64,000 nucleotides of DNA from an uncultured Eubacteriales bacterium. Its GTDB lineage: Bacteria; Bacillota; Clostridia; Christensenellales; CAG-917. Under the pieces are notes generated by a model, which was not told the origin of the DNA, did no database searches, and saw nothing but the letters and a program-made list of their open reading frames with translations. Position numbers and translations under genes: made by a program. The stretch is from positions 16,291 through 80,290 of the forward strand of contig URIX01000001.1 in NCBI GenBank assembly GCA_900547975.1, in the 5' to 3' direction. Shown here one piece after another: positions 37,738-56,804 of this stretch (its first letter is position 1; each line of letters opens with the position of its first letter).

Positions 37738-37784
37738 TTGCTTGCAAGCATATGATATGCTATACTGTGTACCGAAATCGGTAC
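37738..37784 (+). promoter_or_regulatory. Promoter TTGCTT-17-TATACT with two inverted repeats (candidate operators)
   Basis: gcatat-g-atatgc (37748-37760) lies inside the spacer. gtaccga-aa-tcggtac (37769-37784) lies just after the -10. Confidence 0.5.
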
Positions 37785-37828
37785 ATCAAACGATTTTTAT
37801 AAAAAATTTTACGAAAAAGGAAAAGATT

Positions 37829-38812
37829 ATGGCACTCGAAGCGAAAAAGACTCTGATTATGCGAATATATCAAATTCTCGACGAATACAGCGACGAGGAA
37901 CACCCCTTGACCCAACAAAACATAATCGACATATTAGAGCGCGACTACGACATACCCTGCGAGAGAAAGGCGGTGGGCAGAAACGTGTCATATCTCAAGG
38001 AAATGGGATTCGACATCGAATCGACCGCAAACGGAACGTATCTTGCCTCGCGCAAACTCGAAAACGCCGAACTTCGACTTCTCATAGACAGCGTGCTTTC
38101 GTCGAGAAACGTCAATTCCACCCACTCGGAACAGTTGATAAACAAACTTATCGCGCTGGGCGGTCGCAACTTCAAATCCCACGTCAAGCACGTGTATTCC
38201 GTCAAGGAGTGGGACAAATCGGACAACAAGGCGTTTTTCTACAACATCGACGTCATAGACGAGGCTATCGAGCAAGGCAAGAAAATCAGTTTCAACTACA
38301 ACAAAATCGGGCTCGACAAAAAGTTGCACGTTTCAAAGCCGCACGTCGGCTCGCCATATCAAATGCTTCTGCACAATCAACGCTACTACCTTATGATGTT
38401 CGACGAAATGTTCGACGAGGTGGGATTCTATCGTATGGACAAAATCACCGACATCGAAGTGCTTGACGATAACTCAAAACCCTTGCGCGAGAATGTCGGA
38501 TTTGAAAAAGGCATAGATTATAAGCGTATCGCAACGTCTCTGCCGTATATGTACAACGACGCGCCCGTCGCGATAACCCTCAAATGCTGGATAGGTATGG
38601 CGGACACGCTCTACGACTGGTTCGGCACGAACTTCACCGCAAAGAAACTCGACGACAAATATTTCGTCGCGACTATCGTTGCAAGCGAGAAAGCTATGCT
38701 CTACTGGGTGCTGCAATACAACCGCAACGTCGAGGTGCTATCCCCCCTCGCTTTGCGCGAAAACGTGGTCGCAAAACTCAAAAAAACACTCGCTTTGTAT
38801 GAAAACGATTGA
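37829..38812 (+). CDS. WYL-domain transcriptional regulator (wHTH + WYL + WCX-like C-terminus)
   Basis: N-terminal wHTH IMRIYQILDEYSDEEHPLTQQNIIDIL. WYL-type core SPYQMLLHNQRYYLMMFDE..FYRMDKI. C-terminus VEVLSPLALRE. Confidence 0.8.
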   Translation: MALEAKKTLIMRIYQILDEYSDEEHPLTQQNIIDILERDYDIPCERKAVGRNVSYLKEMGFDIESTANGTYLASRKLENAELRLLIDSVLSSRNVNSTHSEQLINKLIALGGRNFKSHVKHVYSVKEWDKSDNKAFFYNIDVIDEAIEQGKKISFNYNKIGLDKKLHVSKPHVGSPYQMLLHNQRYYLMMFDEMFDEVGFYRMDKITDIEVLDDNSKPLRENVGFEKGIDYKRIATSLPYMYNDAPVAITLKCWIGMADTLYDWFGTNFTAKKLDDKYFVATIVASEKAMLYWVLQYNRNVEVLSPLALRENVVAKLKKTLALYEND

Positions 38813-40554: not shown

Positions 40555-40633
40555 AAATCGTAAAACAAGTTGTTTATCCGCTCGTTTAAGATATATAAAC
40601 GTTGCGTTTTGCAATTAAAACTACAAATTTACA

Positions 40634-40670
40634 CAAAAAAACAATCGCTTTTCAGGCGATTGTTTTTATA
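40634..40670. terminator. Bidirectional terminator
   Basis: aaacaatcgc/gcgattgttt stem flanked by an A-run and a T-run. Confidence 0.7.
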
Positions 40671-40685
40671 TGCTTTTCAAAAATA

Positions 40686-41426
40686 TCAGTCTTCTTCAAC
40701 GTCGCACGCAGGTTCTGCAACGGCAGATATTGCGTCCGCCGAAGTCGCTTCTTCGCTACCCTCGCAAGCGGAATTGCGCGCGGCTTCTTCGCGTTGCTTT
40801 TTGAGTACGGGAAGTTCGTCCGTGCAGAACAATCTCACCTTCCCGTCCTTGTTTTTGCCCACGATGTTGAGGATTTTGCCTTTCGTCACACATATGCCCG
40901 CAAAGAGCGGTTCGAGCAAGAAGAGTATCGAGAGCAAGAGCATAAACACAAGCACCACCCAAAGGAACGCGCCGTCGCCAAACCACGCTATAAAGCCTTT
41001 AAGGATATTGTCCGTGCGCATAACTTGGTCCACGACAAACAATTCGTCAAAAGCCGGCATACCCGTCGCGGTTGCCTTTGCCGCAAGCGGAAGTATCGCA
41101 ATAAAAACGTACACCAGCGGAAGCGTAAGCACAAACGCGAACGTCGTTATGCCTATCGTGAGTCCGTTGCGAAGTTTTCTGCTTGGAAAGTTCAACGCCA
41201 CGTTTGAAAAGAGCATAATCCCTGCGCTCATCGTGAGAATGACGACGATATATTTTGCAAGAACGTTGTCTATTCTGCTGAAAGCCGTGAAAAACGCGAT
41301 ATTGTCGGGATTGTCCATATCCTGCATCGCGTTGAGCAAAAACAGTATTCCCAAAATGATGATCGCCACCGAAAGACCCAAAAGCGCAAAAAGCACCTTC
41401 TCGGTTTTTGAGAGTTGTTTAGTCAT
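40686..41426 (-). CDS. Membrane protein, 246 aa, acidic cytoplasmic tail, unknown function
   Basis: ORF track shows about 5 TM segments. It has its own RBS and promoter. Confidence 0.75.
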   Translation of the reverse strand: MTKQLSKTEKVLFALLGLSVAIIILGILFLLNAMQDMDNPDNIAFFTAFSRIDNVLAKYIVVILTMSAGIMLFSNVALNFPSRKLRNGLTIGITTFAFVLTLPLVYVFIAILPLAAKATATGMPAFDELFVVDQVMRTDNILKGFIAWFGDGAFLWVVLVFMLLLSILFLLEPLFAGICVTKGKILNIVGKNKDGKVRLFCTDELPVLKKQREEAARNSACEGSEEATSADAISAVAEPACDVEED

Positions 41427-41453
41427 AATTTTACCCCTAAAATTAATAAGTCA

Positions 41454-41482
41454 ATTATACCCGACAATCGCATTATAAGCAA
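41454..41482 (-). promoter_or_regulatory. Promoter TTGCTT-17-TATAAT for the 40686..41426 gene
   Basis: Read on the minus strand. Confidence 0.55.
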
Positions 41483-41594: not shown

Positions 41595-41623
41595 AGAAAA
41601 AGCCGAGCATTATTCGCCCGGCT
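41595..41623 (-). terminator. Rho-independent terminator downstream of the helicase gene
   Basis: agccggg/ctcggct stem (one G-U pair) followed by ttttt on the minus strand. Confidence 0.6.
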
Positions 41624-41755: not shown

Positions 41756-44700
41756 TTAGTTGTTATCGTGATTTGATTCATTTGAACTATCTTCGGCTTG
41801 AGTTAAGTTTTCTTTTTCTAATATTTCAATCGGTCCGACAAATTGTTCTAAGAACTTTTCTGCCAAATGACGGTCTAATTGATCATGAATTTTTTGATTT
41901 TCATAACTTCTTAAACAATTGTAGCATGATGGATCGCAATTACATGTTCTCATATTGTACAGCGCCGACATCAAGATTTTATACAATATTTCCCCGTTTT
42001 TAGTTACCAACCGACGAGAATGTCCCGCACCTCCGGGAACGGCATCGTATATTATTATCGAATAATGCATAATGTTGTCGGTTAGACGTTGGGATAAGCA
42101 TGCCTTTATATCTCTGCGTTCAATATTCAAATCCTTCGCTATTGCGTTAAGAATTGCGTACATTACGGAAATCATTGTTTTGTAGTCGGATGTGTCACAA
42201 GAAAAGGTAATTTTAGCCACATCGGTGTTAAACACATGGTGCAGAGACCTTCGTTCTAATTTTCTTGAATTACAATTATATTGTCCAAATAAACTTTCGT
42301 GTGGTTTTTCCGTTTCTACAAATAATGCGCCTTGTTGCATTTGTCCTTCGATTTTTTTCTCACCGATACTTTCATCGGCGGCAACTGCATAGCCGCATAG
42401 CGGGCATACGTAGAAATTGGTTGAAGATTTTACCATAAGAGAGTCATTAGTCGTTGATTCGACTTTGACTTCAATCCCATTGAACGAAAAATAGTACTTA
42501 TCTATCAATTTGGCTGATGTGTTGCCGATATAATAATCTTCCGAACGATAGTTTTTTTCTTGTTTTGTCATTGGAACATCTTTATCGTTTCGTTCTGCTA
42601 CGAAACCGGATCGGGGTTCTATGCTTTCGAAAAAATTGATAGGCTTAAGTTTCTTTCCGCATGAAATACAAGCAATGCCTTCTTTGGACGGAGGCACAAC
42701 ACTGTAATTGACGGTTTTACAGTCATCGTTATCGCAAACTGCTATATAGCCGGTGTGCCAGTCTTGTCGATTCGTGCCTATTGCTGCTTTTTTGATGTAT
42801 CTACTGGTATACAGCCTGCCGTCTGCAATAACTTCAGATGACGGAGCATACTCGGCTATAGCAATTTGCAAATCTCTGCTTAATCTCAATTTTGCTATAT
42901 TGTTTGCGGAGGAATTCTGATACAATTCAACCGTATCAACAGGGAATCCGTAACGAGGTAAAATATTCCCGCGTGCAAGGAATTCGATTAGTTTATTAGT
43001 GCTGTAATTTTTTAATTTGCGTTCACACTTAACAGCATCTTCGGAATTTTTTTCTCGTTGGAATTTCTTTATTAACTTTTCAAAATTTGCAATATTGCTT
43101 TCATATTCGGTGATTAGTTGTGTAAAAACTCCGTCTTCACCGCAAAAGCCATCAACCCAGTCGAAATTATCGATACCGATTCTACTATGCAAATTATCTA
43201 TATCCGGTATAGATTTTTTTAGCAGCGCTCTTAGTCTTTCCGGATGAGTGCCTATCCAATCAATAAAAAGCTCGTACCCTTTTTGATTGATGAATTTTTC
43301 GGCATTATTGTGATTGTACAACTCCTCGTGCTCGGCAAAAAACATGCTAAGGGCAACTGCGTAAACATGTCTCCTTACAATTTTTTCGTTATCAACCTTA
43401 AATAAAGGCGGCAAAATAATACCGCTTATCATTTTCTTCGGTTCTTTAAAAAACGATAAGTCGTGAGAGCTTAGTTTTGCAAAAGTCAAAGCAAATGCGG
43501 CAGAGTTTACACTTCTTCCGGCTCGTCCTGCTCTTTGAGCATAATTTGAAGGAAGAGGCGGAACATCTCTCAAAAATACGGTTTCCAAGTCACCGACATC
43601 GACACCCATTTCAAATGTGGTAGAACATGAAAGAGCGTTGATCTCTTTTTTGATAAACTGTTCTTGGTATTCGGCGCTTTCTTTTTTGCTCAATTGAGCG
43701 GTATGTTCTTTTATGAGCAACGGAGACATTCTCTCACTCATATAAAGCTTTGCGAAATGGTTGTTTTTTATAATTTCGTCAGACGAAATTTCTTTCAATT
43801 CGCCATTGCATCTAACGGACGGACATTTGCCGTCAAGATTGAATTGTGTTACCTTTCCGCATTTCTTGCATTTATACCAACGTGCGTGTTCATCTCCGCT
43901 TATTTTTATAGAAAAGTTTTTGGCTCTTAATACATAAGTCCCGTCTTTGTTAATGTCCTCCATACAATAAATATTTCCGTATTCGGCTTTTGTCAAATAG
44001 TCGAAATAGTCTTTTAGAAAACTTGCAGCTTCGGATTCGGGGATGCCTAAGGTTCTGCATACGTAATAAGTCTTATTGTTTTTGTAGAATTCGTCATTTT
44101 TGCCCGGCTTATTTCTCGGTGCAAACGAAGCCACCGTGATTCTTTTATTGTCAGGACTCTTTAAGTATGTAATAAACCTCTGTGATTGTGTATAAAAGAT
44201 ATATTCGCGATCGTTGTCATCGATATCGCTGTCATTGTCGGGATAAATTGCGCCAGATTTGACGATTTCGAAAACAAGCATATCTAATAGAGCTTCAACG
44301 CTGCGAGTGGATACTCCGTATTTTTCGGCAATTGAGGCAACTATTTCAGGCGTATTGCCCATGTAATGGAATTGAATTTGCCCCAAAGCAGTTAGCGAAG
44401 TAGAGGAATTGTATCTTGCAAGTTCGTTTAACAATGCAACCCAAGCATTTTTACGGCTGTTAACAGTCAGATTACTTTCATCCGAATTTGATTTTGCAAA
44501 ACTCTTTTTAGAAGAATAGTAATTTGTAAGCAAAGTAACAAAATCGGAAACAGTGTAATTTTGATTTGCGATTTCTTTCTTTTTTTCTTCAATTATACGA
44601 CAAATGCCTCTTCGTCTTAAAAACTCGCAATAACTTTTGCTTAAATAACATGCAAACTTTGCAGCCTCTTGTCTGCTGTCGGAAAACGCCAAGAACTGCC

Positions 44701-46636
44701 GACCTGTTCTTTTTGCGACTTTCTTATTGGACAGGGCAGCTTTTGCAAATATATTTTGTGTCGTGATTTTTGCGGTTTCCTCTTCGTATACTAATTCCGG
44801 CAATTCTTCATACAAAGATGTCGCCAAAACAGCTGTTGCGGCATCGTTTCCCAAATAGAACCGTCTATATGAACCGTTGCAACAATTCCCGCATCTTGCT
44901 CCGGATTTTAGAACTTTGGCTTTTACTACTTTTATATAGTTTTCCGTGCCGCAGTCGCAAGGAGGAATGTGTTGTTCTCCTTCCGCAACGATGCCTCCGC
45001 AATGAGGGCATAAATAGTAGTAGTCTTTTTTTAACGATTCGCCGGAATCAATAATTTCTTCATCAGACAACTCTTCGTTATCATCGTCTAAAAGATAAAA
45101 GTAATCGACTTTTTCTTCTTGTTTGCTAGTCTGAACTAAATGACGATTTTCGATTTTCCCAACTAATGCAATTCTTCCGCACGTATCGCAAATACCGATT
45201 TCAAAAACAGCATAAGGTTTTTCGTCTTTGAAATATTGCTTTTGCCGATTCAGGAAAAGCGTTTTGGTTTTGTTTATAGTGGCGTAGCACCCTTCGAGGC
45301 TTCTGATGAAAAAATGATATCGGGCATCTAGTAACGATTTGCCGTTTTTTTGCGCTCTGGTACAAAGAGAAATAAAAGAAATCGCCGTTTCTTCATCGAT
45401 ATTCAATGTTTGTTCTATTTCAAACAAAGTACATACATTTGAAATGTTCAATCGTAATGAATGGTACAAATCCGAGCTGACAACTAAATCATATATCAGT
45501 TCATTTTCTTCTTTGTTTTTGTCGCAATCTATCCCATATTTTTGCAATACATTGGCAACGATGTTACTTTCGTCGGCAATATCCTTGTACAACTCATCGG
45601 AATAGTGTTTAACATACGAATTTGGTATGTACTTTTCACGAGTAGCTCTGATTATATTTTCTTTATCAAAATTTTCGCCACAAAGATTTTCTGCAAATGT
45701 AATAATGTCATCATCCGCACTTGAATCACTACCAAGTGTCGCGCTTGTCAAGATGAATCTGGTCTTTTGTGTTGCAGATATTCTGGCTTTAAGGCGGCGC
45801 AATAATATGGCCGTTTCAATTCCTGTTGCTCCGTTGTAAACATGAGCCTCATCAAGAACTACAAATCTAAAATCGGCATTAGAAAAAAGCACATCGTCCT
45901 TTGGCCTAAAGAGAAGATGCTCCAACATTGCATAGTTTGTAAATAGAATATTCGGAGGAATCTTTTTCATTTCGTCTCTAGATAATATTTCATTATCCAA
46001 ACGATGTCTGAGTTTTTCTATTTTTTCTTTTGAGAACATTGCTTCGTAAACAGCAATTGCACTTTCCTCGTCATTCTCGGTTCCTCCGTTGTATACCCCA
46101 AAAGTAATATCCGGATAGTACATAAGTAGTTCGCGAATATTCTTCATTTGGTCATTTGCAAGAGCATTCATCGGATAAACAAACAATGCTCTTACGCCTG
46201 GGCCAAGCGTTCCTGCTTCTTGTTCTCGCAAAAGTTCGTTTATTACAGGTATTAAGAAACAGTTGGTTTTACCACTTCCCGTACCGGTTGATATGACAGC
46301 ATTATTCCCGGAAACAATACTCCGTACTGCTTTCTCTTGATGTAAATACAACTTTCTGTCAACAGGCAATTTTCGTTTATATAGCTTGTTTTGCGGCTTT
46401 TCGCTTTCAAGGTTGAGAAACAGCGGCGAAAGCACTCCTTGGTCAACTAATTCTGCGATAGAATGCCCCGTTGCAAAAACATCTTTAATTTCCAAAAGAG
46501 GCCCTTTGGAAATATTTTTCCTCAACTCTTCAACAAATTGTTGTTGTAGATTTTCATCGCAAAAAGAGTAGCTTGTTGCTACGTAATCTATAAATTCGTT
46601 CTTTATGTTATTTGAAGCCTTTGCCGGATTAAACAT
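41756..46636 (-). CDS. 1626-aa SF2 DEAH-box helicase with zinc-ribbon inserts and a C-terminal DUF1998/MrfA-type Cys-rich domain (DruE-like)
   Basis: Motifs in order: TGTGSGKT, VYPMNALANDQ, VLDEAHVY, LTSATLG, FEMGVDVGD, QRAGRAGRS. CxxC pairs CDTCGR, CPHCGG..CDCG, CKKCGK..CPSVRC. C-terminus CPLCGYA...CNCDPSCYNCLRSYENQ. Confidence 0.85.
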   Translation of the reverse strand: MFNPAKASNNIKNEFIDYVATSYSFCDENLQQQFVEELRKNISKGPLLEIKDVFATGHSIAELVDQGVLSPLFLNLESEKPQNKLYKRKLPVDRKLYLHQEKAVRSIVSGNNAVISTGTGSGKTNCFLIPVINELLREQEAGTLGPGVRALFVYPMNALANDQMKNIRELLMYYPDITFGVYNGGTENDEESAIAVYEAMFSKEKIEKLRHRLDNEILSRDEMKKIPPNILFTNYAMLEHLLFRPKDDVLFSNADFRFVVLDEAHVYNGATGIETAILLRRLKARISATQKTRFILTSATLGSDSSADDDIITFAENLCGENFDKENIIRATREKYIPNSYVKHYSDELYKDIADESNIVANVLQKYGIDCDKNKEENELIYDLVVSSDLYHSLRLNISNVCTLFEIEQTLNIDEETAISFISLCTRAQKNGKSLLDARYHFFIRSLEGCYATINKTKTLFLNRQKQYFKDEKPYAVFEIGICDTCGRIALVGKIENRHLVQTSKQEEKVDYFYLLDDDNEELSDEEIIDSGESLKKDYYYLCPHCGGIVAEGEQHIPPCDCGTENYIKVVKAKVLKSGARCGNCCNGSYRRFYLGNDAATAVLATSLYEELPELVYEEETAKITTQNIFAKAALSNKKVAKRTGRQFLAFSDSRQEAAKFACYLSKSYCEFLRRRGICRIIEEKKKEIANQNYTVSDFVTLLTNYYSSKKSFAKSNSDESNLTVNSRKNAWVALLNELARYNSSTSLTALGQIQFHYMGNTPEIVASIAEKYGVSTRSVEALLDMLVFEIVKSGAIYPDNDSDIDDNDREYIFYTQSQRFITYLKSPDNKRITVASFAPRNKPGKNDEFYKNNKTYYVCRTLGIPESEAASFLKDYFDYLTKAEYGNIYCMEDINKDGTYVLRAKNFSIKISGDEHARWYKCKKCGKVTQFNLDGKCPSVRCNGELKEISSDEIIKNNHFAKLYMSERMSPLLIKEHTAQLSKKESAEYQEQFIKKEINALSCSTTFEMGVDVGDLETVFLRDVPPLPSNYAQRAGRAGRSVNSAAFALTFAKLSSHDLSFFKEPKKMISGIILPPLFKVDNEKIVRRHVYAVALSMFFAEHEELYNHNNAEKFINQKGYELFIDWIGTHPERLRALLKKSIPDIDNLHSRIGIDNFDWVDGFCGEDGVFTQLITEYESNIANFEKLIKKFQREKNSEDAVKCERKLKNYSTNKLIEFLARGNILPRYGFPVDTVELYQNSSANNIAKLRLSRDLQIAIAEYAPSSEVIADGRLYTSRYIKKAAIGTNRQDWHTGYIAVCDNDDCKTVNYSVVPPSKEGIACISCGKKLKPINFFESIEPRSGFVAERNDKDVPMTKQEKNYRSEDYYIGNTSAKLIDKYYFSFNGIEVKVESTTNDSLMVKSSTNFYVCPLCGYAVAADESIGEKKIEGQMQQGALFVETEKPHESLFGQYNCNSRKLERRSLHHVFNTDVAKITFSCDTSDYKTMISVMYAILNAIAKDLNIERRDIKACLSQRLTDNIMHYSIIIYDAVPGGAGHSRRLVTKNGEILYKILMSALYNMRTCNCDPSCYNCLRSYENQKIHDQLDRHLAEKFLEQFVGPIEILEKENLTQAEDSSNESNHDNN

Positions 46637-49376
46637 CTTTGTCCTCCTGAGTTTTGAAAAAGTAATAGTTTATAGGTTTGTTTCCGTTTGCCATGTTAGA
46701 CAGTTGGTTGTAATGATCCAAAAACAGTTCGCCCAAGAAGTCGTTAACATCATCGCTTTCAAGCCCTGCTACCATCCAGCACGTATTATTAGAGCGCAGT
46801 TCTATTCTTACCGGATTTGTTGTCTCGCATATACCATAGTCATTTTTCATGGTATTCAAATATATTTTTCTTCCATCGGGATGACGGAAATACATGGTTC
46901 CCGAATAATATATGCAATCTTCAATGTTTCCTATAAAATGTAATTTTTCAACATAAATTGTTTTCATGTACGACGAGGATATTGCATTATCCAGCATAAC
47001 TTTGCTTATAACGATCGTTTTATTTTTGAACCGTAATTGATTTTCGTCCCCTATTACAATCGAGCGCCGATACAGTGATTCTGCTTTTTTGAAAATATTT
47101 TTAGGCGATGAGAAAATTTCTATCGTATAAAACCCATCTTCAATAGGACTTATATCAATTTCCATTGATTTTAAAGGCAGAGAAACGGATTTCAGTGTGT
47201 TGTTATATTTGTCACTTAATTTTAACGTAAACGCATCGTCAGGTCCTCCAATATATGTTGTTATTGGATTCCAAAGGAAATGGCGTTGAGCAAATAAAAA
47301 ATATGGTGCGTCAACAAATTTTTCTTTAGTATGTATACATAGAAGTGGAAATGGCTTTTCTCCAACAATAGATAAGAGCACCATTGAACCATCATAACAA
47401 TCTATGTTTGAGTATATTTGTTGACCTATTTTGTAATGATTCAATCGATTCTCGGATTTTTCCAGAGGTTTGCAACTTGGCGTGATAAGAATGTTGTACG
47501 AAACGGATGTCGGAACGGACAATTCTAAAATCGAAGAATTGTTAAAAGTTTTATACCAACAGCCTTTTTCGTTAAAGCTATAATTCCAGTCTCCGTCATC
47601 GATTCTCCATTGTATTTTTGGAATGCTTAAAATAATTTCACCGTCGGCGATAGGAAGTTCAACTTCATTTTGTTTTATGTCAAATGAGGCGGAGTGGCTG
47701 AAAAGTTGCGTTGAAAAGCTGACGGTTCCCGTAACGGCATCTCCGTAATAATACGCTTTATCAAAAGTAACGTTTATGTTGTTGAATTTTACAACATTTA
47801 CATTACATATGATTTTCCCTGTGGAAAATTTGAAAACAATGAGTTTTTGAGGTTCTCCCGCATTTAATAGTTCGGAAATGTTGTAGTAAACAATGTCGTC
47901 ACAAATCTCTTTTGAGAAATCTTGCAGCTTCCAAGACGTATCTTCATATCTCACCCCATAATCTGATAAATCAGCGGAATCAAATGCGGCAATCTTCAAT
48001 TCGCCGTCTAAAACATCATACTCCTCGTCGTCTTGTCTAAACTTTACCTCATTTTTCTTGTCTGCGTATATCCATATATCTCTATTTTGCCTTTCACTTG
48101 CAAACAGTACGGTTCTTTTCTTACTTTGAATAACGTCTCCATCTATCGTATTGACGAGAAATAACGAGGAATTAACCTTTTTGATATTTGTAGGATATTG
48201 CAATAAAAAGTTCAAATCTCGGCAGTAAAGCTGATAATTACCCGGCAGGCATTGCTGTGCGAATATCTCCTTTTCCCCGTTAAAAAGCATAAATATTCGC
48301 TCTAAACTTTTTTTAGAATCAAATATCGTTGTTCCGCAGTGTATAATTACCAATCTTATATCAAAACAAGACGTGTCGCTTAAAATTTTGCTTAACTCGA
48401 TTTGATACGCTTTCGTACTCATGGATAACCCTGAACCACGAGTTAACATTTCCTCGGAATACACAAGAGAGTCGTTAGTGTAAATTTCTATCCAAGGACA
48501 CTCATAAATATTATTCAGCAAGCGGAACGCCGGTACGGTTAGATAGACGGTACCGTTTTCATTTATATACCTTGGCTTAATCGCAGAGTAATCCGATACA
48601 ATTTGTGTCGACCGTGACACTTTTGCTTTTTCTATACCAAAGTTTGTTTCTTTGTTTCTCCACCAATTTAACAGCAAGGAATAGTAGTAGGTGGGTTTTT
48701 CTATCGGTTCGCTGCTAAATAATTTGTCTATGGCATTTATGGTGTTGCGAATATATTCGGTTAGTAGGTCACATTGCTCTACGGCAAGGCGCTTTATTCC
48801 GGCTCTGAAATTATATATTTTGGAGCCAAGCTGAAAGTCCTCGTCACCTTTGCTTTTGGCGAAACGTTTGCTTAATTCGTTTGACACAATCTGAAATATG
48901 CTATCCGTCTCGTCAAAATTTTGCGCCATATCTTCGCAGTAAATTTGCCAGCACAATTCAAAGAATGACTCCGTTGATTGCAGCGGAGCAAAAGCATGGG
49001 CAAGGATTGTGGAATAATATCTTTTCTGCGTTCCGTTCAAGTATAGTATTTTATTCCTTTCTCCCAGGCGGTCAATTATTTCCGTTAACGCATGGTATAG
49101 TTTCTGCGAACAAATCTCAGTTCCTGAAAGCTTTTTGGCAATACGATTCCAAAATGTATCTTCATCGGAAGTCCAGGTTTTTACGGAATTAACCATTGCC
49201 ACAAACAATATCTCGTAGTCTAAAGTGCTGATTTTGTTGATATATCCATATTCGAATTCACGCAATCTTTCCTCGGAATAAGAATACATTTTTGACAATT
49301 CTTCATCGTCAAATCTACAATCACCTACAAACTCGCAGCTCATCGCTTCTGCAATTTTTTTCTTGAGTTCCTCCAT
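46629..49376 (-). CDS. 915-aa protein with no motif I can recognise (DruH-like by position and size only)
   Basis: ORF track. I chose the start at 49376 (MEELKKK) for the GAGGAGG RBS. Its stop overlaps the helicase start (ATGTTTAA, 46629-46636). Confidence 0.8.
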   Translation of the reverse strand: MEELKKKIAEAMSCEFVGDCRFDDEELSKMYSYSEERLREFEYGYINKISTLDYEILFVAMVNSVKTWTSDEDTFWNRIAKKLSGTEICSQKLYHALTEIIDRLGERNKILYLNGTQKRYYSTILAHAFAPLQSTESFFELCWQIYCEDMAQNFDETDSIFQIVSNELSKRFAKSKGDEDFQLGSKIYNFRAGIKRLAVEQCDLLTEYIRNTINAIDKLFSSEPIEKPTYYYSLLLNWWRNKETNFGIEKAKVSRSTQIVSDYSAIKPRYINENGTVYLTVPAFRLLNNIYECPWIEIYTNDSLVYSEEMLTRGSGLSMSTKAYQIELSKILSDTSCFDIRLVIIHCGTTIFDSKKSLERIFMLFNGEKEIFAQQCLPGNYQLYCRDLNFLLQYPTNIKKVNSSLFLVNTIDGDVIQSKKRTVLFASERQNRDIWIYADKKNEVKFRQDDEEYDVLDGELKIAAFDSADLSDYGVRYEDTSWKLQDFSKEICDDIVYYNISELLNAGEPQKLIVFKFSTGKIICNVNVVKFNNINVTFDKAYYYGDAVTGTVSFSTQLFSHSASFDIKQNEVELPIADGEIILSIPKIQWRIDDGDWNYSFNEKGCWYKTFNNSSILELSVPTSVSYNILITPSCKPLEKSENRLNHYKIGQQIYSNIDCYDGSMVLLSIVGEKPFPLLCIHTKEKFVDAPYFLFAQRHFLWNPITTYIGGPDDAFTLKLSDKYNNTLKSVSLPLKSMEIDISPIEDGFYTIEIFSSPKNIFKKAESLYRRSIVIGDENQLRFKNKTIVISKVMLDNAISSSYMKTIYVEKLHFIGNIEDCIYYSGTMYFRHPDGRKIYLNTMKNDYGICETTNPVRIELRSNNTCWMVAGLESDDVNDFLGELFLDHYNQLSNMANGNKPINYYFFKTQEDKDV

Positions 49377-49492
49377 CTCTTCCTCCTCTGTATTAACCAA
49401 CCCTCTTCCACATGATGTTTCCCAAAAATTAAAGTATATAATTTTCGGGAATCGACTACTGTTTAAGCCAATCGGCAACGTAGATTGGTCCT

Positions 49493-50494
49493 TTATTCGC
49501 CAACGTTAATTTCCGTTTCGAGTTTTTTCATTGCATTCATAATTTCATCAAAAGTCGGTTTTTCTCCAAACAGCATGTTTTGCATGTGGTCATAATCGGA
49601 GCGAAGTTTTGTCGTATTATAGTCGGGTGGCAACAGCTTCATCGTTCCACGCTTTGCAAGATCGTATCTTGCCCACGGACAACGATAAAACTTGTCCTTA
49701 AATTTCACAACACGTTCCAACAAATCGTTGTCGGCAAGCGCATTATCTTTTACGGGCGATTTCATCATCTTGTACAAGTCGTAGTAATGGCGCGAATACC
49801 TTGAAGGGAACGGGCGATCTTCCGGGCGGAACGCTTCTCTGTGCAAAATGGTAACCTTTTCCCAAAATGTGCGTTCGGGCAAGACGGTCAATACTTCTGT
49901 TGACGATTGCGTAAACACTCTTGCATATAGTTGTGCCGAATAAGGGGTAACGGTTGCTTCTTTTACTGGGGTCCAAGCGGCAAGCGCACCGATTTCAAGT
50001 CGTATTTCTTGCAAAATAGACGAATCGGCAAAACTGTTCGGATAGACGATTTTTATCGTTTGAGGATCGCTATCGTCAATAAAACAGTGGATATTTCGAT
50101 CAAGCTCGGCAGTTAAATCAGCAAGCGTTGCCGGCAAAAATGTATCTCTCAAAAAGACCTCGGCACGAGTGTTGGCTTCTTTGTTGAAAATATCCTGTTT
50201 CGTGTTGCTTCTTTCTTGCCACGGCTCGTCTATTCCGTATCCAAGAACACGCCAATCGAGAATCAAATCGATGTCTTCCGAAAATCTCTCAATAAGTCCG
50301 TACGCTTTTGACAAACTCGTACCGCCCTTGAATGCGATATTGTCTTTCCACGCCGAGCGATGAAAAAGATAATCGAGCATATAACACACCCAAAAATCCT
50401 TTTCTATTATGGCATCTGTCATGCCCATTTTTGCTGCGGTATTATGAAAAAGTGCTTTTCTGTCGTTTTCGTTGATTTTTGCAATGTTTCGCAT
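49493..50494 (-). CDS. abiEii: AbiEii/AbiGii-family nucleotidyltransferase toxin (type IV TA / abortive infection)
   Basis: N-terminus ...DAIIEKDFWVCYMLDYLF...IAFKGGTSLSKAYGLIERFSEDIDL is typical of the family. Confidence 0.8.
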   Translation of the reverse strand: MRNIAKINENDRKALFHNTAAKMGMTDAIIEKDFWVCYMLDYLFHRSAWKDNIAFKGGTSLSKAYGLIERFSEDIDLILDWRVLGYGIDEPWQERSNTKQDIFNKEANTRAEVFLRDTFLPATLADLTAELDRNIHCFIDDSDPQTIKIVYPNSFADSSILQEIRLEIGALAAWTPVKEATVTPYSAQLYARVFTQSSTEVLTVLPERTFWEKVTILHREAFRPEDRPFPSRYSRHYYDLYKMMKSPVKDNALADNDLLERVVKFKDKFYRCPWARYDLAKRGTMKLLPPDYNTTKLRSDYDHMQNMLFGEKPTFDEIMNAMKKLETEINVGE

Positions 50495-50495: not shown

Positions 50496-51104
50496 TTAAC
50501 CTCTGCAAATTTGTCTTATATATTCATAAATCCAAGACGTTGCTGTTTTTGCTTCCGACATCATTGTTTGTTTCTCATCGACAGTAAGCAATTTGCGCAA
50601 ACTGTCAAGCAGGGCATCGTCTATTTTGTCTTTTCCGAGTGCTTTCAACGCTTGAATAGTGAGAGCCGTTTTGTATGAAAGCTTAGAAACCTCTTTGTTC
50701 GTCGTTCTTTTGAATTGAATTGTCGTGTTGTCGTAGGTGTATTCCTTATATGTGCCGTCGCTGACGTAAACCCACGTTGCCGGAACCTGCGTTGACAATC
50801 CGAGCAAATTCAATGCCGTATCTCCGCACGGAACGATTGTCCAACCATAATTGCGGGCAAGTGCGTGTGCTACGTTATCCGGAATAGGTGCAATGTATTC
50901 CTTCAAGAATTCGTTGTATTCGGGTTTATCGTAAACGCCACGCAAAACTCTTCTAATAATCCCTTCGGATTCAAGACGAGCCAATGCAACGTTTGTGGTG
51001 GTTTTGTCCGTTATATCGGCAAAATCCGCCGCAACAAAAACAGCACCTATTTTTTCAGCTAATATTCTAATTTTTATCGCACCAAGATAGTTAGGTCTAT
51101 TCAT
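50496..51104 (-). CDS. abiEi: AbiEi-like antitoxin (DUF6088-type wHTH protein)
   Basis: About 200 aa. ...NVALARLESEGIIRRVLRGVYDKP... 1-nt gap to the toxin gene. ATG at 51104 after GAGGTGA. Confidence 0.7.
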   Translation of the reverse strand: MNRPNYLGAIKIRILAEKIGAVFVAADFADITDKTTTNVALARLESEGIIRRVLRGVYDKPEYNEFLKEYIAPIPDNVAHALARNYGWTIVPCGDTALNLLGLSTQVPATWVYVSDGTYKEYTYDNTTIQFKRTTNKEVSKLSYKTALTIQALKALGKDKIDDALLDSLRKLLTVDEKQTMMSEAKTATSWIYEYIRQICRG

Positions 51105-51238
51105 CACTTCACCTCGTTAGGAATAGTATACACTTTTTCTAACCGAAAATCAAGATATTATGACACCAAAAATTAAATTTTTTTCGCTAATTTTTAGATT
51201 AAAAACAAAGAAACAGAACAAAAAACTTCAAATGGCAC

Positions 51239-51300
51239 TTTGGCGGGTGCTTGACTAATACAAGCGCGACGCTTCGCGTCGCGGTCAAGCACCCGCCAAA
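51239..51300. other. GC-rich 17+8 bp compound hairpin/cruciform
   Basis: tttggcgggtgcttgac ... gtcaagcacccgccaaa (perfect), with inner cgcgacgc-ttc-gcgtcgcg. Confidence 0.85.
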
Positions 51301-51347
51301 CAACTCGCTTAAACTCGGATAAAAAGGTCAACTCAAAGCCGAGCGAA

Positions 51348-51388
51348 ACGGGGCGTTCGCCGCTAAACCGCTTGGCGAATCGCCCCGT
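51348..51388. other. Second hairpin, about 14 bp with one bulge
   Basis: acggggcgttcgcc ... ggcgaatcgccccgt. Confidence 0.75.
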
Positions 51389-51465
51389 AATTCTTCGCAC
51401 GGCGGCATATTTTGAGTTTTTATTCCTTTTATATCTTCCAAGTATTTTCGCTCCGTTTTGTTTCG

Positions 51466-51493
51466 GGCGGCGTTTGTTGCGCCGTCTTTTTTT
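51466..51493 (+). terminator. Terminator-like hairpin plus T7 run
   Basis: ggcggcg/cgccgtc (one G-U pair), loop tttgttg, then ttttttt. Confidence 0.55.
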
Positions 51494-51505
51494 GTTGCCT
51501 AAAAT

Positions 51506-51595
51506 CCATTTTGCAGCCATTCCGCAGTCATTTTTCTTCTTTACAAAAACCATTGTAAATGGAAATTTTCCATTGAAACTACATTTTGAGCCATT
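51506..51595. repeat. Five CCATT repeats roughly in helical phase (iteron-like)
   Basis: CCATT at 51506, 51517, 51550, 51570 and 51591 (spacings 11, 33, 20, 21). One sits in the palindrome ccatt-gta-aatgg. Confidence 0.6.
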
Positions 51596-51744
51596 CACGC
51601 TTTTTCTGTGGAGTGTTGTAAGATTGAATTGTGCAAAGAGATTGCAAAAACTTTTGTATTTCTTTCAAGGAATTATTTCGAAGTCGCAAAAAACTTGCGA
51701 GTTCGGGTAATAAAATCTATTTCAAAAAAAAGGAGGACGGAAAA

Positions 51745-52085: not shown

Positions 52086-52133
52086 ACGGCAGAGTATGAA
52101 ATTGTATGGTGTTTCGTATTCTGCCGTTTTTTA
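52086..52133 (+). terminator. Intrinsic terminator/attenuator about 50 nt upstream of the rep start
   Basis: acggcagagta / tattctgccgt 11-bp stem (one G-U pair), 20-nt loop, then tttttt. Confidence 0.6.
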
Positions 52134-52180
52134 TTTTCTTTCGCCATACAAAAAAATCTAAATCACAAGGAGTAAAAACT

Positions 52181-53095
52181 ATGAACTACGCAAATATGAA
52201 AATCTACTTTGACGGCGGTCATTACGTCGGAATACCGCAAGGAGCGTTTCCGAGCGGAAAAGGCTGTAAAAGGCGCGCCGTTAAACCTATGAAACAACAA
52301 TCGACGGCAGACGTAACGCCGCCCGAAACCCCGAAAGAACGCTTTGAAACGGCATATAAAGAGAGCCAATCTCTACCGAAGCGAGAACGCAAGGCGCATA
52401 TAAAAGCCGCTATGCAAGACGATTTCAAGGATAAAGCCGAATTGAACGCTTTTGTCGAGAAAAACACCGAACGAATGAAAACCAACGCCATTAAGCGCAA
52501 AGTAAGGCTTATGCGAAAATTGCGTTTGCAGGATTGGAATTTTTTCGTAACTTTTACCTACTCGAATGAACTTCACACCGAAGAAACGTTCCGCAAAAAG
52601 TTGACTAACACCTTAAAACACCTTGTTGCGAGAAACGGTTGGAAATATGTGGGAATATGGGAGCGCGGCGAAGATACGAACAGACTACATTTTCACGGTA
52701 TTTTCTATATTCCCGACGGCAAAATGATAGGAAAACTCGAAGAAGTAAAAGACTACGACACGCGAAACCACCGTATGCAAACGACATACCAAAACACGCA
52801 TTTTCTGAAACAGTTCGGGCGTAACGACTTCAAGGATATTGCCACACAGGACGATATTTCCGAGGCGGCGAAATACATAACGAAGTATATGGAGAAGTCC
52901 GGCGAGCGTTTAGTCTACGGCGGAAAATTGCCGACTTACTTCCGCTCGGACGTTTTGGACGAAGATGTTATATGCTCTTTCGGAGTTGACGACCGAAAAG
53001 TATTGCTTTTCGATAATTTTACCTGTATCAACGAGGGCGAAATTCTCGGAAAGGTAAGCAAAGAAATTATAGCGCAGTTGCCGCATTGCAACTAA
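52181..53095 (+). CDS. Rolling-circle replication initiator (HUH endonuclease superfamily)
   Basis: Motif 1 FVTFTY, motif 2 LHFHGIFY (HUH), motif 3 EAAKYITKYMEK. ATG at 52181 follows AAGGAG. Confidence 0.75.
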   Translation: MNYANMKIYFDGGHYVGIPQGAFPSGKGCKRRAVKPMKQQSTADVTPPETPKERFETAYKESQSLPKRERKAHIKAAMQDDFKDKAELNAFVEKNTERMKTNAIKRKVRLMRKLRLQDWNFFVTFTYSNELHTEETFRKKLTNTLKHLVARNGWKYVGIWERGEDTNRLHFHGIFYIPDGKMIGKLEEVKDYDTRNHRMQTTYQNTHFLKQFGRNDFKDIATQDDISEAAKYITKYMEKSGERLVYGGKLPTYFRSDVLDEDVICSFGVDDRKVLLFDNFTCINEGEILGKVSKEIIAQLPHCN

Positions 53096-53098
53096 TTA

Positions 53099-53248
53099 GT
53101 CTTTCGGATCGGGAAAGGTTAAACGAAAACGACTTTTTCGTCAAGGGTAAAATGCATTGCTTGGCGCAACCCTTGACGAGAAAAGCCGTAAGCCATAAAA
53201 GAAAACAATTTTAATTCGTTTCCGTTTTCTCCGTTCCCGTCGAAAGAC
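53099..53248. other. Nested inverted repeats between rep and recombinase A
   Basis: Outer arms gtctttcggatcgggaa / ttcccgtcgaaagac. Inner perfect arms cgtcaagggt / acccttgacg with a 20-nt loop. Confidence 0.7.
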
Positions 53249-53282
53249 AAATCTAAAAATAAAATTAAAGGAGTAACAAATT

Positions 53283-54782
53283 TTGAAAACTGGAGTTATT
53301 TACGCTCGTTATTCGAGCGACACTCAAACGGAACAGTCCATAGAGGGACAACTCCGTGTATGCAACGAGTATGCGAAAAACAACGACATACTCATTTTAA
53401 GAACTTATATAGACCGTGCTATGACGGGTACTAACGACAATCGTCCCGACTTCCGTCAGATGATTGAAGATAGCAAAAAACACGATTTCAATGTCGTACT
53501 CGTTTACAAATTCGACAGGTTTTCGCGCAATAAATACGAAACCACGAAACACAAGAAAACGCTTAAAGATAACGGCGTTAAAGTCGTTTCCGCTACCGAA
53601 TATATTCCCGATAGTCCCGAGGCGATTATACTCGAAAGTATGATTGAGGGCTATGCCGAATATTACTCTGCCGAACTTTCTCAAAAGGTAAAACGCGGTA
53701 TGAACGAAACAAGACAAAAAGGCAACTTTACGGGCGGAACTGTCATTTACGGCTATAAAGTAGAAAACCACAAAGTCGTGATTGACGAAGAAAAAGCCGA
53801 AGTCGTAAGGTTTATTTACGACCAATATGCGCAAGGTGTTTACGTTAAAGACATAATAAAAACGCTTACCGAAAGAGGTATTTTCAATCGCGGTAAAAAA
53901 TTTGCGAGAAATACCGTCTACAATATACTCAAAAACGAAAAGTATTCGGGTATATACAGACACGGTAACGAAGTTTTTACAAATATGTATCCGCAAATCG
54001 TGCCGACAGAGATTTACGAAAACGTAAGACGAAAGACCGAAACCAACAAATACGGAACTCGTAGCGTTGAAGTCGTGTATCTTCTACGCAACAAAATTAA
54101 ATGCGGCTACTGCGGTAGTCCTATTTCTGCCGAGTGCGGAACGGCTAAAAACGGACAGAAAATACGCTATTACAAATGTTTGGGACGAAAACACCAAAGC
54201 GGTTGCAAAAAATCCCAAGTCAGGAAAGAAATACTCGAAAAATATGTACTTGACAACGTATGCGAACAAATGCAACGCCCCGAAATATTAGATAAAATGG
54301 CGACGTATTTACTGCAAGTGCAGGAAAACCGAATAAAACAAAACTCGGTTCTGACTAATCTAATAAAAGAGAAACGCCAAACCGAGAATACGATAAACAA
54401 CATTATGCAAGCCATAGAGCAAGGCGGACAAAGCGCAACGGTAATGAAACGTATGCGAGAACTTGAAAAAAAACTGACCGACATCGAGAAGCGATTGACG
54501 ATTGAAAAATCTCAAACGGCGTTCAGGCTTTCCAAAGAGCAAATAATCGATTATTACAAATCTGCGCTTGAAAAAGAGCCGCTACAACTGATAAATTACT
54601 TCATAAAAGAAATTCAGTTGTATGACGACAAAATGATAATTATCTACAACACCCCAAAGACGATAAACCTTGACGAAAGTCAGGGTTTTTCTTTTTACGA
54701 CAAAAACGTTAAAATGCCGTATGTGATACAAAACAGAGAGTATTACGGACTTAAAGATTTCAGACTTATAATGCGTATCTGA
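53283..54782 (+). CDS. Large serine recombinase A (499 aa)
   Basis: IYARYSSDTQTEQSIEGQ catalytic-Ser N-terminus. Zinc-ribbon CGYCGSP...YYKC. Coiled-coil C-terminus. TTG start after AAAGGAG. Confidence 0.9.
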   Translation: MKTGVIYARYSSDTQTEQSIEGQLRVCNEYAKNNDILILRTYIDRAMTGTNDNRPDFRQMIEDSKKHDFNVVLVYKFDRFSRNKYETTKHKKTLKDNGVKVVSATEYIPDSPEAIILESMIEGYAEYYSAELSQKVKRGMNETRQKGNFTGGTVIYGYKVENHKVVIDEEKAEVVRFIYDQYAQGVYVKDIIKTLTERGIFNRGKKFARNTVYNILKNEKYSGIYRHGNEVFTNMYPQIVPTEIYENVRRKTETNKYGTRSVEVVYLLRNKIKCGYCGSPISAECGTAKNGQKIRYYKCLGRKHQSGCKKSQVRKEILEKYVLDNVCEQMQRPEILDKMATYLLQVQENRIKQNSVLTNLIKEKRQTENTINNIMQAIEQGGQSATVMKRMRELEKKLTDIEKRLTIEKSQTAFRLSKEQIIDYYKSALEKEPLQLINYFIKEIQLYDDKMIIIYNTPKTINLDESQGFSFYDKNVKMPYVIQNREYYGLKDFRLIMRI

Positions 54783-54810
54783 CAATAACGCAGACGATTT
54801 ATTCCACGGT

Positions 54811-54935
54811 GTTCTTGACGTGAGCCTCTCAGGAGCGTGTCGATAGGCAAATAAACCGCCAACCGACAGCCCCGAGGGGCTTTTCGTTTGCCTTTGGCAA
54901 GATAGCCTGACACACTCCTTTCTCACGTCAAGAAC
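54811..54935. other. 125-nt nested imperfect palindrome immediately 3' of recombinase A
   Basis: gttcttgacgtgag/ctcacgtcaagaac (14 bp perfect), aggagcgtgtc/gacacactcct (10 of 11), aggcaaa/tttgcct, apical agcccc-gag-gggct. Confidence 0.8.
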
Positions 54936-55259
54936 CTTTCGCGGCATAAAACCGTCTGCAACTGCTACGGATAAAGCGATACGAACACACCATACGAACA
55001 CCGAAAAAGATAAAACGACGGCACATAGACAACCGAAAAACGCAGTTAAAACCTGAATTTTTGCAAAAGAAAAACCTAAACCAAACACTTTCGTATTCGA
55101 TTTAGGTTTTGATTGGCGGACATTTTTTAATCCCAACTGAACACCCTAAAATTGCTTGTGTAATATATACTTCGTATATATTAAGTTGTTTTTTTTATTT
55201 GTGAATTTTTACAAAAGTGTACATTTTTATTCAAAAACCTAGATTATAATTCGAAACCA

Positions 55260-56804
55260 TCATATAAACAAAATTATCTCATAATCGGTAACAATTGGCT
55301 CTTTTCCTATTTTGTGTTGGTCTATGGTTATGCGCTGATTAAATGAGTAAAAAGAAAAGGCCTGATGCAGTTCGTCATCAGGTCTTTTCCCATCGGTATA
55401 ATTGAAGTGAATTTCTATCTTATCGTTATATAGCACAACTTGTTTTATTAGCAGTTGTATCATTTGCAGCGGTCGCTTTTTTACTGCGGATTGTAGGTAT
55501 TTTACTATATCGTGTTTCTGTATTATCAAATTAGATTTTAGTTTCTCGACGGCAATCTTATTGATTAGCTCCGCCTTTTCAGCCTCTAATGCATTCAGTC
55601 GTTCTTTTGTTGTTTGACTGATGATGCCTTGCTCCATTGCCGCTATCAAATTGTCTATGGACGATTTCTTCTCTGCTAATCTTTCTTCCAAGATATGTAG
55701 GATTGATTGGTCGTCCATTCGCTTTTGATGCGCGCCCATTATTCGCTCGGCTATATCTTCTATTAAATCCGGCGTTGCCAGGGCTTTGTATGTTGCATCT
55801 ATTACAACTTTTTCCAAAACTTCTTTTCGTATCGGCGTGCTTTGACAATTCTTCCCTTTCCGCCGCCCCGAACATTTGTAATATCTCATAATTACGCCAC
55901 TTTTCGAAGTGCCGGAATCGGAGTTTATTGGACTTCCGCAATAACCGCACGTAACTTTGAATTTCAATAGATATTCAACATTAGGTTTGTGCTTTCCGTA
56001 TTTGTTGTTTTCAATTCTCGCTCTAACAATATCGTATGTCGTTTGAGAAATTATCGGAGGATAAATATTCGTAAACACTTCATCGCCGTGTCTAAAAATG
56101 CCTGCATACTTTTCGTTTTTCAAAAGAAAGTAAACCGTGTTCCTTGCAAATGGTTGTCCTCTATTCTCAATTCCTTTCTCGTGCAACTCGTCAATAATAT
56201 CAGTTACAAGACGTCCTGCTGCATAATCTTCAAAAATCTTTCTGACAATAACCGCTTGGTCTTCGTTGATTTGCACCTTTCGCCCAGTCTTTCTATCTCC
56301 CGTCACGCAATATCCGAATGGTATATATCCACCTGTAAAATTGCCTTTTTGACGGCTTTCATTCATCCCGCGTTTGACCTTTTGTGATAACTCTGCCGAA
56401 TAATACTCTGCCATACCGACATACATATTCTCAAGAATAATTCCGTCAAGGTTTTGAGAACCGTCTATATTTCGCGACGTTCGTTGTGTTGCAGAAATGA
56501 CAATCTTACCTGTCTTTTGCAACTTGAATTTGTTGATTGCTTGTTCAATAGAATTCCTTCCGAAACGGTCTAATGCATATACAAGGCAAATATCCCATTC
56601 TTTTGTCTTTTCACTGTCCGAAAGCATTTGCTGGAATTCTTTTCTTAAATCGTTTGTGCCTGTCATTGCGCGGTCTATATATTCATGCACTACAATCAGG
56701 TCGTTGTTTTTTGCAAACTCATAACAAACTCGAAGCTGACCTTCGATAGATTGTTCAGTTTGTCGTTCGCTCGAGTATCGAGCATAAATTACACATTGCT
56801 TCAT
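55260..56804 (-). CDS. Large serine recombinase B (514 aa), paralogue of A
   Basis: IYARYSSERQTEQSIEGQ..., CGYCGSP...YYKC. Alignable with A over its full length, roughly half identical by eye. Confidence 0.9.
   Translation of the reverse strand: MKQCVIYARYSSERQTEQSIEGQLRVCYEFAKNNDLIVVHEYIDRAMTGTNDLRKEFQQMLSDSEKTKEWDICLVYALDRFGRNSIEQAINKFKLQKTGKIVISATQRTSRNIDGSQNLDGIILENMYVGMAEYYSAELSQKVKRGMNESRQKGNFTGGYIPFGYCVTGDRKTGRKVQINEDQAVIVRKIFEDYAAGRLVTDIIDELHEKGIENRGQPFARNTVYFLLKNEKYAGIFRHGDEVFTNIYPPIISQTTYDIVRARIENNKYGKHKPNVEYLLKFKVTCGYCGSPINSDSGTSKSGVIMRYYKCSGRRKGKNCQSTPIRKEVLEKVVIDATYKALATPDLIEDIAERIMGAHQKRMDDQSILHILEERLAEKKSSIDNLIAAMEQGIISQTTKERLNALEAEKAELINKIAVEKLKSNLIIQKHDIVKYLQSAVKKRPLQMIQLLIKQVVLYNDKIEIHFNYTDGKRPDDELHQAFSFYSFNQRITIDQHKIGKEPIVTDYEIILFI

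Follow-up and report, generated by a model that had tools for sequence, protein, structure and literature searches.

A probable Druantia-type defence module pairing a DruE-family helicase with a protein of a new family on a mobile island of a gut Clostridia bacterium

The stretch of DNA analysed here (the window) comprises 64,000 nucleotides of contig URIX01000001.1 from an uncultured Eubacteriales bacterium (Clostridia; Christensenellales; CAG-917; assembly GCA_900547975.1). It contains a pair of overlapping minus-strand genes encoding a large protein without annotated domains, here called the partner, and a helicase matching the DruE profiles of Druantia systems (Table 1). An earlier note, made from the sequence alone, had proposed the pair as a Druantia type III-like candidate. 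The Druantia part of that proposal holds, given the DruE match, the DruH position of the partner gene, its coupling to the helicase gene and the apparently DruH-like plan of its product, but membership of type III could not be demonstrated, as no DruH could be recognised. The two genes are likely to form a Druantia-type module directed against phages (invading DNA), which this gut bacterium carries as cargo of an integrative mobile element.

Both open reading frames (ORFs) were confirmed by reading and translation at the coordinates of the earlier note, which had not given their strand. The partner ORF extends over 46629-49478 if a TTG start is used and encodes 915 amino acids (aa) if it begins with the ATG at 49376. 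The 915-aa reading is taken to be right because homologues are 907-925 aa long with an alignment beginning at residue 1, and because a GGAGGA ribosome-binding site lies just before this ATG. The partner stop codon overlaps the helicase start by 8 nucleotides (ATGTTTAA), and the ribosome-binding site of the helicase (AGGAGG) is situated inside the 3' end of the partner gene, 8 nucleotides before the overlap. The GC content drops from approximately 0.49 to 0.36-0.40 over 41-50 kb. The overlap and the AT-richness of the pair relative to its flanks were thus correctly described in the earlier note. A terminator-like hairpin is the probable end of the operon. Two ORFs were considered as a third component and rejected, namely the plus-strand ORF 40570-41478 and a 246-aa membrane ORF downstream of the helicase; both lack family matches, have host-like GC and are separated from the helicase by the terminator-like site. 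The gene pair is far beyond chance, as it recurs in many independent loci.

The 1626-aa protein is, judged from its sequence, a DruE-family YprA-like superfamily 2 (SF2) helicase. It gives the signature profile match of Druantia, with PADLOC models DruE1 (E 8.8e-174) and DruE3 (E 4.2e-169), and DruE2 and DruE4 also below 1e-100. Other PADLOC helicase families score far lower (579 bits for DruE, 58 bits for DrmA at 1.8e-16), and DruE scores approximately 500 bits above any repair-type model. Pfam analysis identified DEAD, Helicase_C and MZB (MrfA zinc-binding) domains. The best solved relative by sequence is a 2108-aa DEAD/DEAH box helicase (PDB accession no. 9tu7, E 4.7e-76), with further matches to a 1970-aa helicase (9wae) and to MrfA/YprA of Bacillus subtilis (6znp, E 2e-15). 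The motifs and Cys-rich module quoted in the earlier note are all present and in order: GTGSGKT (118-124), VYPMNALANDQ (153-163), VLDEAHVY (260-267) and LTSATLG (296-302), followed by FEMGVDVGD (1008-1016), QRAGRAGRS (1034-1042), CPLCGYA (1411-1417) and CNCDPSCYNCLRSYENQ (1565-1581). An insert of approximately 700 aa between motifs III and V holds CDTC, CPHC, CGNCC, CKKC and CPSVRC. It has been described that a BrxA-like domain, a beta-barrel zinc module (ZBM) and a MarR-like domain form a shared derived insertion in the ARMADA-Druantia helicase lineage (Bell et al. 2025, PMC12458937), to which this Cys-rich insert would correspond by position and literature. An SF2 core, a zinc-module insert in RecA2 and a C-terminal MZB/DUF1998 domain, the YprA-like architecture of Druantia, are all found in the protein.

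The helicase ends approximately 50 aa past the MZB domain. Of the 2055 positions of the DruE3 profile, its alignment covers none beyond 1693, leaving the C-terminal ~360 unmatched; the protein therefore lacks the region in which DruE of type III-A carries its PLD nuclease domains. No nuclease domain was matched in the helicase, and Pfam gave no PLD match. The claim that its size and layout are those of DruE is accordingly right for the nuclease-less helicases of the type III-B/mycobacterial kind, but not for III-A.

No matches to the 915-aa partner were found in PADLOC, Pfam, NCBIfam or PDB sequences, and PADLOC returned none even at E<=10. Models of DruH, DruA-D, DruF, DruG, DruL and DruM gave no match. 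The accessory genes of types I, II and IV (DruA-D, DruM/F/G and DruF/DruL; type IV as defined by Payne et al. 2021) had no PADLOC match in the partner or the other scanned non-AbiE neighbours. Pfam and profile scans of the partner gave no exonuclease match. The partner family is new in the sense that a literature search found no description of it and current defence-annotation profiles do not recognise it.

An AlphaFold2 (AF2) model of the partner, built with 44 homologues (pLDDT 88.3), is all-helical over aa 1-245 and all-beta over aa 265-915 (DSSP). Median identity to homologues is 50% for the N-terminal domain and 34% for the beta region, the C-terminal part of which is the fastest-evolving. 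Foldseek analysis of the N-domain alone against PDB gave no fold match (best E 0.7), and the full model gave only generic tandem Ig/FN3 matches in PDB and BFVD (TM-scores <=0.13), those of the beta region being to S-layer proteins, receptor ectodomains and phage Ig/FN3 proteins. A baseplate-J-like match of the kind reported for DruH was absent from the Foldseek results (PDB, BFVD), as was any DruH structure from the PDB fold-search matches. A fold search with DruH itself likewise gave generic tandem Ig/FN3 matches (Loeff et al.). In published DruH, the N-terminal surface is functional and the Ig-like domains are under positive selection, a split similar to that in conservation between the N-domain and beta region of the partner. 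The model thus suggests that the partner resembles DruH in plan, with a helical N-domain followed by Ig-like beta domains, while the third element of DruH is missing: the model has no counterpart of the C-terminal helical domain of solved DruH, which holds the residues binding single-stranded DNA (ssDNA) and ATP (R1031, H1062, R1064 and K1067).

A word-indexed search recovered 92 clusters of the partner family at 90% identity, all unannotated, and an exhaustive HMMER search 374 representatives at 50% identity. The family is present in 20 species-representative genomes, nearly all of gut Clostridia/Bacillota, among them that of Cuneatibacter caecimuris DSM 29486, a cultured organism. Fifteen database loci extend 1.2 kb or more downstream of the partner gene, and in every one of them the start of a DruE-like helicase lies no more than approximately 12 nucleotides from the partner end; three further contigs end within the helicase gene, one of which (L016) keeps just its first 19 codons. 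The two-gene operon of type III, in which the gene directly before druE encodes a large partner, is found in the window and in these 15 loci alike. This survey of co-occurrence, which the earlier note had proposed, bears out its suggestion that the partner, in which it could recognise no motif, represents a new family: a large unannotated family strictly linked to DruE-like helicases. The pairing holds even for the 22%-identical partner of locus L003. Partner and helicase co-diverge, with the partner always faster (partner/helicase identities of 62/78, 52/78, 41/72, 36/66, 22/44 and about 20/32 %). In most other loci a small helix-turn-helix gene of varying type lies upstream of the pair. The flanks differ among loci and include TnpV, resolvases, an SLFN/AlbA_2 protein and a NERD-UvrD helicase; in Cuneatibacter the pair stands beside metH. 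A tblastn search of phage and plasmid collections with the partner gave no match at 1e-5.

Table 1. Features of the gene pair, of its surroundings and of related loci. Positions are those of the window, except in the last row, where they are those of three metagenomic loci.
Feature	Position	Strand	Basis or remark
Partner gene, DruH-position protein of a new family, 915 aa	46629..49376	-	ORF and translation
Partner N-terminal all-helical domain, aa 1-245, most conserved part	48642..49376	-	AF2 pLDDT 90 / pTM 0.87 modelled alone
Most conserved partner block, K118-RYYSTILAHAFAP-131	48984..49025	-	Y121, T123, H127, P131 invariant in partner-family alignment
Partner all-beta region, aa 265-915, long enough for roughly 6-7 Ig/FN3-like sandwich domains	46632..48584	-	DSSP of AF2 model, Foldseek, conservation profile
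Stop/start overlap ATGTTTAA, translational coupling	46629..46636	-	Direct sequence read
DruE-family (YprA-like SF2) helicase, 1626 aa, ATG start	41756..46636	-	ORF, PADLOC, Pfam, PDB sequence matches
RecA1 core, aa 95-310, Walker A GTGSGKT and DEAH	45707..46354	-	Pfam DEAD 99-302; motif positions
Large insert, aa 311-971, CxxC zinc modules at 483, 543, 582, 923, 938	43724..45706	-	CxxC positions; assigned by position and literature
RecA2 conserved part, aa 972-1054, motifs V and VI	43475..43723	-	Pfam Helicase_C 972-1042; motif positions
MZB / DUF1998 zinc-binding domain, aa 1492-1575	41912..42163	-	Pfam PF09369, 3e-13
Terminator-like hairpin and T-run, ~130 nucleotides past helicase stop	41601..41623	-	Consensus scan, pattern match only
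AbiEii, co-oriented with pair, separate known system	49493-50494	-	PADLOC AbiEii 8e-106; Pfam AbiEii
AbiEi, co-oriented with pair, separate known system	50496-51107	-	PADLOC AbiEi 3e-61; Pfam DUF6088
Rep protein (REP_ORF2-G2P)	52106-53095	+	Island backbone
Large serine recombinase	53283-54782	+	Island backbone
Large serine recombinase	55260-56804	-	Island backbone
LexA-like S24 repressor	57660-58271	+	Island backbone
Y-family polymerase	58281-59543	+	Island backbone
YolD	59521-59868	+	Island backbone
UvrD-fusion operon loci	L026 2046-13625; L028 5025-19419; L029 1670-15811		Fusion 1606-1655 aa

The pair lies within a low-GC island of roughly 41.5-60.5 kb, next to an AbiE module in which both the AbiEi antitoxin and the AbiEii nucleotidyltransferase toxin are present. 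The backbone of this island (52106-59868) probably represents an integrative element that brings along an SOS-type mutagenesis module of its own; no tRNA gene marking an integration site was found in the window. Host-like genes flank the island: on one side those of a CLC channel and of a WYL regulator, on the other those of glycoside hydrolases. The gene of the regulator, a WYL/WCX-domain protein (37742-38812, plus strand), is located just past the left edge of the island beside that of the CLC chloride channel; WYL regulators often accompany defence loci. Two putative island ORFs on the minus strand, 51194-51598 (134 aa) and 54582-55136 (184 aa), had no match in any profile library tried. 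The ORFs scanned in the 37.7-63.9 kb interval gave no methyltransferase, PLD nuclease (DrmC) or DrmD/E. What had been noted of the surroundings, that AbiE and recombinases are near and that a methyltransferase and a PLD nuclease are not, agrees with these results. The same order of AbiEi, AbiEii, partner and helicase occurs in a Ruminococcus metagenome-assembled genome (L023, AbiE at 160-1763), with identities to the window of 82, 89, 39 and 72 %, respectively. This mosaic suggests either cassette exchange or very fast evolution of the partner.

More distant relatives of the partner were also identified. Within the plasmid collection, the closest helicase is that of pNPD4_2, a megaplasmid of Clostridium butyricum CDC_51208, where the upstream overlapping gene encodes a 1069-aa 'hypothetical protein' that belongs to the partner family and was found only via its helicase. 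This divergent partner/DruE pair (WP_071981758.1 / WP_071981757.1; L030 3783-11668) has a 4-nucleotide overlap and comes from a cultured, sequenced strain, which makes it a convenient experimental source. A cyanobacterial family of ~960-aa proteins is homologous to the partner family (hhalign probability 91.7%, E 8e-7, 419 columns spanning the N-domain and first beta domains) and has no PADLOC matches. On a plasmid of Pseudanabaena sp. ABRG5-3 (NZ_AP017561.1; L031 3364-13240), a protein of this type (WP_126390731.1) is followed by a 310-aa gene and then by a DruE of 2082 aa. A second, convergent DEAD/DEAH helicase gene and a 3'-5' exonuclease gene adjoin this locus. Public records often name these ~960-aa proteins 'ParA / chromosome segregation ATPase-like', apparently in error.

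Domains of the partner family also occur in fusions: after RNAP-alpha-CTD (HhH) repeats, in which case a DruE gene follows downstream, after DUF3427, and ahead of a UvrD/GajB-like helicase. Fusions of these three kinds point to a DNA-directed role of the partner. The UvrD fusion belongs to an operon conserved in three independent metagenomic loci, with genes, in this order, for Vsr, a C5-methylase, an HpaII-like endonuclease, the fusion, DrmA-like and DrmB-like proteins and a NERD-UvrD helicase; no Vsr is visible in L026, whose contig begins at the endonuclease and methylase. From its gene content this operon looks like an undescribed DISARM-like system sharing the accessory domain of the partner. 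A NERD+UvrD-like helicase (PADLOC RTasNERD-Hel, 1e-69) is also encoded directly after the DruE of the most distant partner homologue (L003 12678-14372). A helicase of this kind, which is last in the DrmAB operons of L026, L028 and L029 and absent from the window, may contribute an optional third component, a nuclease-helicase.

If it acts as characterised DruE does, the helicase of the window would load where 3' ssDNA is exposed in intermediates of phage replication or recombination, and would unwind in the 3'-to-5' direction. Translational coupling would ensure that the partner is made in fixed proportion to it. The partner may stand in functionally for DruH: the conserved helical N-domain would couple to the helicase and/or DNA, the fast-evolving Ig-like array would recognise signs of infection, for instance phage structural proteins or DNA ends, and together these would license the helicase. 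Because no nuclease can be recognised in either protein, it is uncertain how the invader is killed, and one of three routes could apply. A cryptic nuclease could reside in the partner N-domain, as claimed for DruH; unwound DNA could be passed to host nucleases; or genome circularisation and replication could be blocked, as reported for the nuclease-less mycobacterial system. The latter, MSMEG_1253/1254 of Mycobacterium smegmatis, in which a nuclease-less 1667-aa DruE and an overlapping upstream partner provide phage defence (Li & He 2026, PMC13316683), is a precedent for defence by a pair of this kind.

In the most conserved block of the partner, Y121, T123, H127 and P131 are conserved at 81-93% among 112 non-redundant family members. 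The top hhalign alignment of the partner with DruH places KRYYSTILAHAFAP of this region against RNFLGTLFSEGGLP, and that with the cyanobacterial protein places it against HTFVSTLWLQSGIP; the top alignment between DruH and the cyanobacterial protein falls on the same N-domain motif (RNFLGTLFSEGGLP / HTFVSTLWLQSGIP) at similar positions. The motif RNFLGTLFSEGGLP is mostly invariant in the DruH alignment, and mutations in it abolish defence. K118-RYYSTILAHAFAP-131 is thus a possible, statistically not significant, counterpart of the essential DruH motif, and the shared motif could mean a deep homology of the N-domains of partner and DruH, for which the alignments give no statistical support. These coincidences favour the view that the pair is an ordinary Druantia type III whose partner is a true, extremely diverged DruH that has lost the C-terminal helical domain and escapes current hidden Markov models, as do the gene order, overlap and size class, which are those of type III, and the apparently common plan of helical N-domain and Ig-like domains. 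This view is nevertheless considered rather unlikely. Full-length YjiT of E. coli strain ECONIH1 (1096 aa), used as the DruH reference, matches 12 PADLOC DruH models as a positive control, whereas none of 46 diverse partner-family members matches any. The YjiT/DruH family carries Pfam PF27205/PF27201, and both are absent from the partner, which has no Pfam match at all. Partner alignments were compared with hhalign against the single YjiT sequence and a 27-sequence DruH alignment, both in full length and as separate domains, reversed profiles serving as controls. Against the latter alignment the probability was <=2.6%, barely above the reversed controls. Low sensitivity of the method is not the cause, because a true family member of 20% identity was recognised at 99.6%; the cyanobacterial family, found at the probability given above, did not serve as a bridge, its own comparison with DruH giving 0.13%. 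The missing C-terminal helical domain counts against this view as well. The competing proposal is that the partner founds a widespread superfamily of companions of YprA-family defence helicases, independent of DruH, which pairs with single-chain DruE in Clostridia and cyanobacteria and, as a UvrD/GajB-like fusion, with split DrmA/DrmB beside HpaII-type restriction-modification. It is put forward tentatively and would not yet be called probable.

Other explanations do without a Druantia-type defence function. The pair could serve the mobile element, for instance by helping it to replicate, recombine, transfer or exclude its competitors, given that the island holds Rep, two serine recombinases and the SOS-type module, and that in other loci, too, recombinase genes stand close to the pair. 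However, the neighbours vary, and no Rep or recombinase was present in the flanks read beside metH in Cuneatibacter or on the C. butyricum megaplasmid; the helicase falls in the defence branch of YprA helicases, and adjacent genes are often defence genes (AbiE, HpaII restriction-modification, NERD-UvrD, SLFN/AlbA_2), which makes this service improbable. A housekeeping DNA-repair helicase of the MrfA/MrfB (YprA/YprB) kind would share the SF2 core and MZB/DUF1998 domain, as the match to 6znp reflects, but is effectively refuted by the margin of the DruE scores over repair-type models, the large zinc-module insert of the ARMADA-Druantia defence-lineage kind, the lack of an MrfB-like exonuclease partner and the location in a low-GC mobile island with flanks that vary between genomes. 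Weak DrmA matches of the helicase, and the partner-family fusion directly upstream of DrmA/DrmB-like genes in three loci, could be read as signs of a degenerate or minimal DISARM-like system. That reading is hardly tenable for a single-chain helicase with a fused MZB that scores far lower for DrmA than for DruE and has no DrmC (PLD), DrmD/E or methyltransferase among the ORFs scanned around it. Several points nonetheless weigh against a Druantia-type defence module. The near-null hhalign comparison with DruH is one of these, and the missing C-terminal helical domain means that the biochemical role of the partner may differ from that of DruH. No identifiable nuclease is present in the partner or helicase, and the upstream helix-turn-helix gene that is usual elsewhere is missing in the window, where AbiE stands in its place. 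Defence is deduced from homology and context. The model from which the mechanism would be borrowed is also disputed: the earlier note's description of the Druantia mechanism as unresolved is out of date, five papers and preprints of 2026 having presented structures or mechanisms of DruE/DruH, but the published accounts of DruH conflict (ssDNA binder, 3'-5' exonuclease, dimer-dependent nickase/sensor) and no single model is settled.

The pair has consequences for annotation. PADLOC, Pfam and NCBIfam recognise only the helicase, so that such systems, which are common in gut Clostridia, are presumably scored as incomplete or orphan DruE. Once the partner superfamily is recognised, Bacillota and cyanobacteria would gain a Druantia type, and Druantia and DISARM-like operons would be linked through a common accessory module. 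Should the superfamily be truly independent of DruH, it would define a new DISARM-like system and one or more new types of Druantia, and the sensor or licensing partner of these helicases would have been invented, or replaced, more than once. With the role of DruH in dispute (ssDNA binder, exonuclease or phage-protein sensor), the pair also offers an apt comparison, as it keeps the helical N-domain and Ig-like array without the C-terminal ssDNA/ATP domain and has a helicase without a nuclease; if it still defends, the missing parts are dispensable for the core mechanism.

Among known systems, type III-A (YjiT-YjiV = DruH-DruE of E. coli and Pseudomonas aeruginosa, described in cryo-electron microscopy preprints of 2026) shares with the pair the helicase core, zinc-module insert and MZB (9tu7), as the model suggests a partner that starts with a helical N-domain followed by Ig-like domains, and the faster evolution of that partner. 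It differs in the C-terminal PLD-like nuclease domains of its DruE, a region for which the window helicase has no match, in DruH's helical C-terminal domain with its ssDNA/ATP site, and in a DruH to which the window partner has no detectable sequence homology. The DISARM core DrmA/DrmB has a YprA-family helicase with an MZB module in common with the pair, and is preceded by the UvrD-fused form of the partner family in the three metagenomic loci; DISARM is otherwise composed of split DrmA and DrmB, the DrmC PLD protein and a methyltransferase, whereas the window has a single-chain helicase of DruE type, and no DrmC or methyltransferase among its scanned ORFs. MrfAB/YprAB systems consist of the helicase and an MrfB-type exonuclease in a conserved housekeeping context, neither of which applies to the window. 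Hachiman (HamA-HamB) resembles the pair in its two-gene design of a helicase and a partner of initially unknown function, a conceptual analogy only, its helicase clade and partner both being unrelated. The cyanobacterial system has a homologous partner, also without PADLOC matches and upstream of a DruE-family helicase, but it differs in the extra gene between the two, in a longer helicase whose alignment reaches almost to the end of the DruE3 profile and in the C-terminal part of the partner. The type III-B and mycobacterial DruH-DruE systems share with the pair a two-gene operon in which the upstream gene overlaps that of the helicase, a DruE of ~1650 aa that ends after the MZB without a nuclease domain (the 'type III-like / III-B' clade of Bell et al. 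2025 consists of helicases mostly without nuclease), and a large partner without annotated domains. The window partner has 915 aa compared with 1132 aa, matches no PADLOC DruH model and belongs to a host of the phylum Bacillota; the DruH of III-B is set apart by description and not by sequence. As the test for DruH failed, the pair should not be filed as type III and is best described as a Druantia variant set by a distinct partner superfamily.

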